In this document: one piece after another, positions 59,913 through 61,795 of the stretch | Numbering within the stretch: position 1 is the first letter of the stretch | Layout: the number at the start of each line of letters is the position of its first letter | Assembly (NCBI GenBank): GCA_951406725.2 | Contig: OX597817.1 | Span: 111,290,001-111,354,000, forward strand | Direction: 5' to 3' | Origin: Octopus vulgaris | Lineage: Eukaryota | Length of the DNA: 64,000 nucleotides | Notes under the pieces: generated by a model | The model's input: the letters and a program-made list of their open reading frames with translations, nothing else | The model's database searches: none | Told to the model about the DNA's origin: nothing | Translations under genes and position numbers: made by a program

Positions 59913-59947
59913 GTTTCCGACAAAGAGCTCCGCTTGAAACGTTAAAC
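59913..59947 (+). ncRNA. Minimal type-I hammerhead-ribozyme-like motif, copy 1 (mutated)
   Basis: gttt-CCGACAA-a-gagc-tcc-gctt-GAAA-cg-TT-aaac. Stem I gttt/aaac, stem II gagc/gctt, palindromic ACGT helix III. Core deviates at U4C and G8A. Confidence 0.55.
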
Positions 59948-60193
59948 TCTCCTTCTTCCCTTCTTTTCTGAGCATCCAATAATACTATATTTGTTCCACG
60001 TCCTCGCGTTGTTGTGTTTTTTTGTTTTTTTGTGTTTTCCTGTTTGGATTAACTTTATATATATATAAATATATATATATATGTACATATATGTATGTGT
60101 GTGTGTATACAAATGTGTGTGTGCAACCGCGTGTGTACCGTTGGCGATTTTTTTTCCTCTGTCTTCCCTTCTCTGGATCTTTCCTTCTCCTGT

Positions 60194-60228
60194 GTTTCCG
60201 ACGAAGAGCTCCGCTTGAAACATTAAAC
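60194..60228 (+). ncRNA. Minimal type-I hammerhead-ribozyme-like motif, copy 2
   Basis: gttt-CCGACGA-a-gagc-tcc-gctt-GAAA-ca-TT-aaac. Core intact except U4C; loop III is CA instead of CG. Confidence 0.6.
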
Positions 60229-61795
60229 CCTCCTTCTTTCCTGAGTGTCCAATAATACTATATTTGTTCCACGACCTCACATTGTTGTGCTTTCATGTTT
60301 GGATTAACTTTAAATGTATATATATGTGTGCATATATATATATATATATATATATATATATATATATATATATATATATAGTTGATAAGATTCAAGTAAA
60401 AACCTTGTAGAATGCTATGCAAAGCCCATCCACAGTTATTGGTTACCTAATGTCATCATACAGTGGAAATGCTCTTGCTACTGGATGGATATACATCAGG
60501 AATTCTCAGGGAAATTCAGCTCAACACAGAATGTGATAAGGCTGACCCTCTGAATTACAGATACTGCTGAGTAGACTAGAATAATGAAAAATAAAGTGTC
60601 CTGCTCAGGGACACAATGCACTGTTAGGAATTGAACTCACAACCTTATGATCATCAGCAGAAAATCCTAACCACTAAATCACATGACTTCATACATGTGT
60701 GCGCGTGTGTGTGTGTGTGTGTGTGTGTATGTATGTATGTATGTATTTATTATTTATTTATTTATATGTGTGTGTGTGTGTGTGTGTATGTATGTATGTG
60801 TATATATATTTGTGATGTGTGTGTGTATGTATGTATGTATGTGTATATATATATCTGTGATGTGTGTTTGTGTAAATATGTAAGAATCTAGAGGGAAAAT
60901 AAATATAACATCACGGATATATTTTAAATGGTCATTATGGTCCTACCATGATACATTTCATTTGTATATTTATGTACTACAAAGTTAAGTATTTCTTTTT
61001 TTCATTTCTTCTTTTTAAGCTTCTATTTCATCTAGTGGAAATTGTCTTATATTTGAATCTATTCTAAATATTTTTCTGAGTCATTTTGACAGCCCCACAG
61101 TTGCATTAATACTAGTATTGTTTTCTATATACAGGTACTTGATGATAAAGTAAAGTATACAATTTCACTAAATAATATATGCTAATGTATCAGCCTATCT
61201 TCTCCATTAAGTTCTTTGCTTTCATTTCAATAAGAATAATAAGCAAGAGAAAAAAAAATAACTCTCACACTCTTATTGCATGTCAGTTTTGTTTGTTCTT
61301 TGTAAAGTCAGCATAGCCAATCTCTGAATACAGAATGGGTTTGCTCTTACTCTGTCTTAATGGGTATTTGCCGAAAAATTGGTTTGACATTATACCCTAT
61401 CACTAGAAAATTCAATCTCTGCATGTTAGTATAATTTCTTTTTTGAGTCTCATCAGATAGATTCTTTTACATCACATAAAATGACTTTGAGGCATAATAT
61501 CAAGAATATGAAATATACATGCACTATCTAACACCCTATACTTTGACTGAATAGATCTTATAGTTTTTTGTATGTTGTATGACTTAATTTGTTTTTCTTT
61601 TTATACCCCTATAACATATAAATAATTATTTTATTACTTATACTAGGAACAGATTTGTTTTTTGTATTAATGATTTTAATATTTTCAACAAAAAGATTTG
61701 TATTTTCTGTAACCATATGAAAGAAAAGAAAAATAATTACTCTGTTTTATTATATTGAAGTTTAAATAACTAACAGTTTAGAAATAGTTTACAAT

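Follow-up and report, generated by a model that had tools for sequence, protein, structure and literature searches.

Minimal type I hammerhead ribozymes are known from the pseudo-LTRs of metazoan Penelope-like elements (PLEs), where they have a 4-bp helix I, an extra base between positions 9 and 10.1, a G10.1-C11.1 pair, palindromic positions 15.2/16.2 and no helix III loop, and where most copies are solo and stem from truncated elements (Cervera and de la Pena 2014, PMC4209133). These features recur in a repeat family of Octopus vulgaris that is represented twice in a 64,000-nt stretch of contig OX597817.1 (positions 111,290,001 to 111,354,000; this whole stretch is the window in what follows). 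There are two differences: the consensus published in that work is CUGANGAH, with U3-A8 as the variant it describes, whereas most octopus copies have C at position 4 (U4C), and helix II is only 4 bp long here, with a 3-nt loop. The same core change is known from a natural viroid hammerhead cited in PMC3088659, but there it is rare and sits in a full hammerhead with tertiary contacts, whereas in the octopus family the majority of thousands of minimal genomic motifs carry it.

Two further systems are close. The endonuclease-containing Neptune PLEs (PMC8557442) have a reverse transcriptase (RT), a CX2-5CxxC linker, a C-terminal GIY-YIG endonuclease (EN) with two cysteines between GIY and YIG, a DKG motif, partial tandems and inversions, and microsatellite targets, all as in the octopus elements described below, which differ in their long CA-rich 3' UTR (1.1-2.9 kb) and in the U4C hammerhead. 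That paper calls the function of hammerheads in PLEs unclear. Animal non-LTR retrozymes (PMC7229834; bioRxiv 10.64898/2026.07.22.740005) likewise carry a type I hammerhead in a short repeat and are linked to PLEs, but theirs are tandem, canonical and circle-yielding, and in the present family the copies are dispersed, the hammerhead is minimal and an ORF is attached. We consider it probable that the copies in the window derive by 5' truncation from the 3' end of a Neptune-like Penelope retrotransposon and that the motif is its minimal type I U4C hammerhead, which we predict to be weak since this core change is known to lower activity.

Two short copies in a TA-rich tract

Both copies lie on the forward strand. 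A (TA)54(TG)12 tract at 59782-59914, to which no strand is assigned, is the likely target site, judging from the tract itself and from the junctions of unselected copies of the family. Copy 1 (59910-60057, about 148 nt) starts at about 59910, directly after this tract and just 5' of helix I. A TA/TG microsatellite (60058-60109, no strand) separates it from copy 2 (60110-60312, about 203 nt), which is a 3' end of roughly 200 nt starting at about 60110, at the commonest 5' junction of the family, and is followed by a (TA)32 tract (60317-60380, no strand). Copy 2 has about 85 nt 5' of its motif that are absent from copy 1. The hammerhead-like motifs are at 59913-59947 and 60194-60228 on the forward strand, 281 nt apart, and each is followed by a common tail of about 110 nt and then (TA)n, as the initial annotation had it. 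A 24-nt motif pattern matches exactly twice within the window and in 0 of 100 shuffles.

Motif 1 has helix I GTTT/AAAC, core CCGACAA, an extra A, helix II GAGC/GCTT and GAAAC-GTT. Its changes are U4C and the private G8A and C11.1U. Motif 2 carries U4C with the private changes C11.1U and G16.2A, the last of which disrupts the ACGT palindrome. Both have a G-U at 10.1/11.1, at the base of helix II. The cuts predicted by the initial annotation, after 59943 and 60224, fall at N17, and the private differences between the copies, which it took for CpG decay, are indeed mostly CpG transitions. The two copies differ from each other at 11 of 109 nt and in two length polymorphisms, and they rank 92nd and 98th of 116 as each other's relatives. 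They are likely to be separate insertions into one TA-rich tract, although this is not proven since they share C11.1U and since decay after a joint origin would leave them about as far apart. The window holds no tandem array. The copies are dead remnants, and the locus is an ordinary one with two fragments among thousands. A common short repeat, present as an inverted pair about 3 kb apart (58804-59080 and 61809-62094), flanks both of them.

The initial annotation had placed the copies in sense orientation to a host gene and had supposed that an active copy could cut its intron. ORF lists and a coding-likeness scan established no host exon in the window, 20 kb upstream or 40 kb downstream. The idea of intron cutting is without support here because no host gene is established, and both copies carry additional damage. 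Coding-like frames in the window and 60 kb of flanks are repeat-derived, besides one exon-like stretch at 34939-35130 on the forward strand, which has a pyrimidine tract and AG before it and GT sites after it. This stretch had no Pfam match and no usable Atlas match, and four RNA runs chosen by guess gave no contig cover over it, which is uninformative either way. The segments 9374-9880, 11095-11568, 21826-22574, 23774-24190 and 46270-47004 contain what we take to be LINE-like (CR1-, RTE- and R4-like) and mariner coding fragments. A GC-rich 67-nt tandem repeat of 3.4 copies is found at 19936-20158.

The parent element

Adjacent RT and GIY-YIG ORFs, which the initial annotation had proposed looking for at other loci, are found near longer copies of the repeat. 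One locus (L176) contains, on one strand, RT, a CX4CxxC linker, GIY-YIG, a 1.1-kb UTR, the U4 form of the repeat and (TA)n. Another (L177) has an RT fragment 92% identical to that of L176, followed by UTR and the C4 form, and a third (L281) has RT, EN, UTR and a repeat at 83% with a decayed C4 core. RT followed by GIY-YIG upstream of the repeat 3' end and on the same strand is found in L176, L281, L283 and L284 as well as in sister lineages. In all but one of 18 fetched regions, the motif has the 24-nt C4 block either unchanged or with a single change, the exception being L281. Among 257 longer homologues, RVT_1 was detected in most of the 120 listed and GIY-YIG often. The RT of L176 as a query gave 12,934 candidates, of which 129 were scored, many of them in long open frames. 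In one sister element (L175), the Pfam matches to RVT_1 (E 0.0017) and GIY-YIG (E 0.0014) are both under the curated cut-off. No intact ORF was found for the particular subfamily to which the window copies belong.

A young sister lineage consists of pseudo-LTR/ORF tandems of about 6.2 kb with open frames of 883-1008 aa and the same 24-nt C4 block. Seven young copies show 0-5 differences per 2,100 coding nt. Partial tandems occur in this lineage and in L284, and the copies include a 5'-truncation series. An 884-aa frame has DKG, YIDD, CSRSRCNTC at 752, CIKC at 793 and RFTEH at 814, so that the linker precedes a C-terminal EN with cysteines of the CCHH type. The CX2-5CxxC linker is assigned to Neptune and Nematis (PMC8557442), and one RT segment is identical to Neptune1_Ap from the supplement of that paper at 60 of 95 positions by hand count, with visibly fewer identities in the Nematis rows shown there. 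We call the parent a Neptune-like PLE because of the linker motifs and this hand count, so that the label means closest to Neptune in sequence features. Recently active Penelope families have been listed for O. vulgaris in PMC13282606, where the part that lists them leaves ribozymes unmentioned.

Several observations concern the structure of these elements and their relatives. In the young full-length elements (L285:794-1240 and 990-3641; G000:C4:98439500-98448500), an N-terminal coding stretch with the first ATG is out of frame with the 884-aa RT/EN frame, which has its first Met at residue 496. This frame split is likely a conserved frameshift or an intron. At L283:1243-3687, the subfamily of the window is present as a short copy that directly abuts the 5'-truncated ORF of a sister lineage, a junction that is possibly a template switch or a nested insertion. 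A GIY-YIG search also led to another PLE family, rejected as the parent, whose protein is 28% identical to that of the parent described here and which is not linked to the repeat. That family (L117, L122 and many others) has intact 781-aa frames and about 6,100 GIY-YIG candidates.

Conservation of the motif and the change at position 4

The family motif consists of helix I GTTT/AAAC, core CCGACGA, an extra A, helix II GAGC/GCTC with loop TCC, GAAA and a 3' part C-G-T-T, with loop 3 absent. Except at position 4, it has the form of the minimal type I hammerhead of PLE pseudo-LTRs, and its cleavage is a prediction only. The U4 subfamily has the core CUGANGA/GAAA/UH; the C4 majority deviates from it at position 4, and copy 1 in addition has G8A. 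Helix I, helix II with G10.1-C11.1, base 9.1 and the palindromic 15.2/16.2 are present, with 96.9% of cells paired across 12 rows. The part of the initial annotation that saw a minimal type I hammerhead-like motif of a PLE in (TA)n stands, while its reading as a tandem retrozyme does not, as set out below.

The initial annotation had held that its reading would fail if a consensus conserved core and stem pairing no better than their flanks and the consensus dimer did not cleave. The relevant comparison is with three lineages, D, D2 and E, that were found by protein search and independently of the motif. These keep the core at 10/10 and helix II at 8/8 positions (18/18), while their flanks are identical at 106/175, 143/187 and 155/184 positions, respectively (61-84%). 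On this comparison, the motif is shown to be selectively retained between lineages. The remaining rows of the table are circular in this respect since they were chosen by motif. Among 39 single copies, mutation is 1.6% in the core versus 4.3% in the flank, a difference on which we do not rely because some of the copies were picked by matches overlapping the motif and because selection does not act on dead ones. In the families compared, C, A or U is found at N7 and U, C or A at N17, which is never G, a pattern of variation like that of hammerheads. Covariation adds little: one helix I pair changed on both sides (GC to CG), making 1/8 stem pairs, which 217 of 500 shuffles equal or exceed, and helix II has none in the alignment rows examined. 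The motifs fold no better than shuffles (z 0.56 to -1.86), intact copies favor an alternative hairpin in which the core GACG is paired with CGUU or CGUC, and helix I of the youngest lineage contains a U-U mismatch. The Rfam check that the initial annotation had proposed, run on 56000-62000 with matches up to E 10, yielded microsatellite noise and no hammerhead.

Exact 31-nt motifs in the genome number 5,338 with CCGA, 1,234 with CTGA and 212 with CCAA, the CpG control, and reversed-sequence controls gave 0. C4 is therefore present in 5,338 of the 6,784 counted, and this excess over U4 indicates that U4C was inherited from master elements, as judged from sequence, and is not decay. The motif of the young sister lineage occurs 1,528 times, with C4 in 96 of the first 100 (hand count). 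Conversely, we could rule out that the U4 copies are mere CpG decay, since they are six times as frequent as the mirror change (1,234 vs 212) and have linked diagnostic letters. Positions 76 and 4 are concordant in 62 of 70 copies not selected on position 4. By these sequence criteria, the U4 copies form a subfamily in their own right. Both states occur in a related family that has a 4-nt loop (C4 in 42 of the first 100 of 532 matches, hand count), and more distant GTAG-loop rows among the listed matches are all U4 with helix I CTTT/AAAG. On a 51-row tree, U4/C4 may have changed 6 times, at least 2 of these changes being forced.

C4 is also found in a second family, of which a decayed copy lies at 57369-57497 on the forward strand, with its C4 core at 57428. 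This copy has G5A, has lost the 5' strand of helix I and is fused to an inverted piece of its own tail. In this family, helix I spans 8 bp and helix II 3 bp, helix III is CTC/GAG and the site is GUA, and its flanks differ by eye from those of copies 1 and 2. Among the first 100 of its 967 matches, 83 have CG, 12 TG and 5 CA (hand count). Copies of this second family (L229-L240) often form fold-back inverted pairs and have an optional tail of about 80 nt; 32 loci contained no parent ORF for it. C4 is the majority state in both families, which bears out the suggestion of the initial annotation that the shared U4C is an ancestral variant. Our literature searches found no report of a U4C/CCGA core in PLEs, including in a search that combined octopus and hammerhead, so that novelty is provisional. 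Provisionally, then, both the element and the ribozyme are of a known kind, and what is new is that the C4 core is dominant in the largest and youngest lineages.

Spread of the family and competing readings

Copy 2 as a query gave 3,484 candidate matches in its own genome, and we used the first 30 C4 loci of contig 1 as an unselected sample. In this sample, (TA)n is at the 3' end in 28 copies and a microsatellite at the 5' junction in 26, and 5' ends are 30-132 nt upstream of C3 (median 75.5), with 29 of 30 within 86 nt. Five of the 30 have another copy no more than 1.5 kb away, 3 of them in inverted orientation (two of these being one pair), and none has a head-to-tail neighbor within 300 nt. 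The family is a dispersed repeat and not a tandem array. This distribution bears on the proposal of the initial annotation that the locus is a tandem non-LTR retrozyme whose monomer of about 281 nt is excised and circularized. The 281-nt spacing does fall within the 150-450 bp range of PMC7229834, a 2026 preprint derives retrozymes from pseudo-LTRs (bioRxiv 10.64898/2026.07.22.740005), and one true head-to-tail dimer besides the window (L005, 2 differences per 109 nt) occurs among the 30 best matches. The repeated unit, however, is about 200 nt and part of a longer element, the spacer between the window copies is microsatellite, copy 1 is truncated 5' of its motif, the window copies are poor matches to each other by rank, and long copies of the family run into the RT/GIY-YIG ORF. 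We regard a retrozyme origin as very improbable and a 281-nt monomer as unsupported. No copy starting at the cut site was seen among about 8 incidental copies, a small sample. A different question is whether most short copies come from a defined template of about 200 nt (a solo pseudo-LTR) instead of random truncation, either as a non-autonomous derivative or by reverse transcription from the first pseudo-LTR of a tandem transcript to the start site. The clustering of 5' ends points this way, as does the next upstream stretch, which has just 160 exact matches (these extend 5' variably through the CA-rich UTR), and internal initiation of RT near a pseudo-LTR/ORF junction was shown for another PLE (PMC11167929). 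Against it, the 5' ends still vary in position, they gather at an ATGTG stretch, where microhomology could link them to TA/TG targets, and the upstream pseudo-LTRs of young full-length elements reach well beyond that point. We think such a template somewhat unlikely; it is compatible with truncated Neptune-like 3' ends since it would alter only the route.

The main rival concerns activity, namely that the motif of the C4 lineage no longer cuts and is retained as a hairpin bound by the element's protein. U4C considerably lowers activity in vitro (PMC3088659), the youngest lineage, with its helix I mismatch, is predicted to fold 71% into the core-pairing hairpin (-8.8 kcal/mol), and catalytically dead hammerheads did not hinder the in vitro insertion of another PLE (PMC11167929). 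On the other hand, the other catalytic letters are all kept, N7 and N17 vary as in working hammerheads, the viroid U4C variant nonetheless supported infection (PMC3088659), and the unrelated 57428 family keeps the full C4 hammerhead shape while being unable, by eye, to form that hairpin. Taken together, we find a non-cutting hairpin improbable. A weak hammerhead dependent on a dimer or on protein would fit all observations, and for one PLE hammerhead cutting does occur only with protein, with cleavage unneeded for insertion in vitro (PMC11167929).

Under the preferred reading of truncated Neptune-like 3' ends, the two copies would likely have been inserted separately by target-primed reverse transcription. 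Based on the anatomy of the copies and on PMC11167929, the endonuclease of the element would nick TA DNA, and RT would begin copying at the 3' pseudo-LTR end of the RNA, usually halting 70-85 nt 5' of the motif. Any copy spanning the cut site would have been made from uncut RNA. The C4 hammerhead would cut weakly, as a dimer or with the help of protein. Because copy 1 has G8A and copy 2 has lost its palindrome, only the core of copy 2 could act in a dimer of the window motifs, on the substrate strand of copy 1, giving at best one weak cut after 59943.

In a third TA-tailed repeat family (L031-L060; 1,372 candidates), the core is CUGAAGA, a long arm resembles helix II and copies are often inverted, and at L031 and L032 the present family is fused to the 3' end of this third family.

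The value of these observations is in the family and not in the window locus. A core change that lowers activity prevails in the youngest lineages and in the most numerous ones, with the motif otherwise constant, and descriptors requiring CUGA would overlook more than 7,000 of this genome's motifs. Subfamilies with U4 and with C4 that are a few letters apart, together with intact ORFs, make rate, need for a dimer and help by protein directly comparable. We also put forward, as a speculation that we hold to be improbable, that C4 arose in at least two Neptune-like families of different build and that the hammerhead is turning into a non-cutting or protein-gated RNA signal. If so, helix I would also have been disrupted in the youngest lineage and a core-pairing hairpin acquired there, even as the element goes on spreading, and the U4 and C4 sister subfamilies would be a natural experiment.
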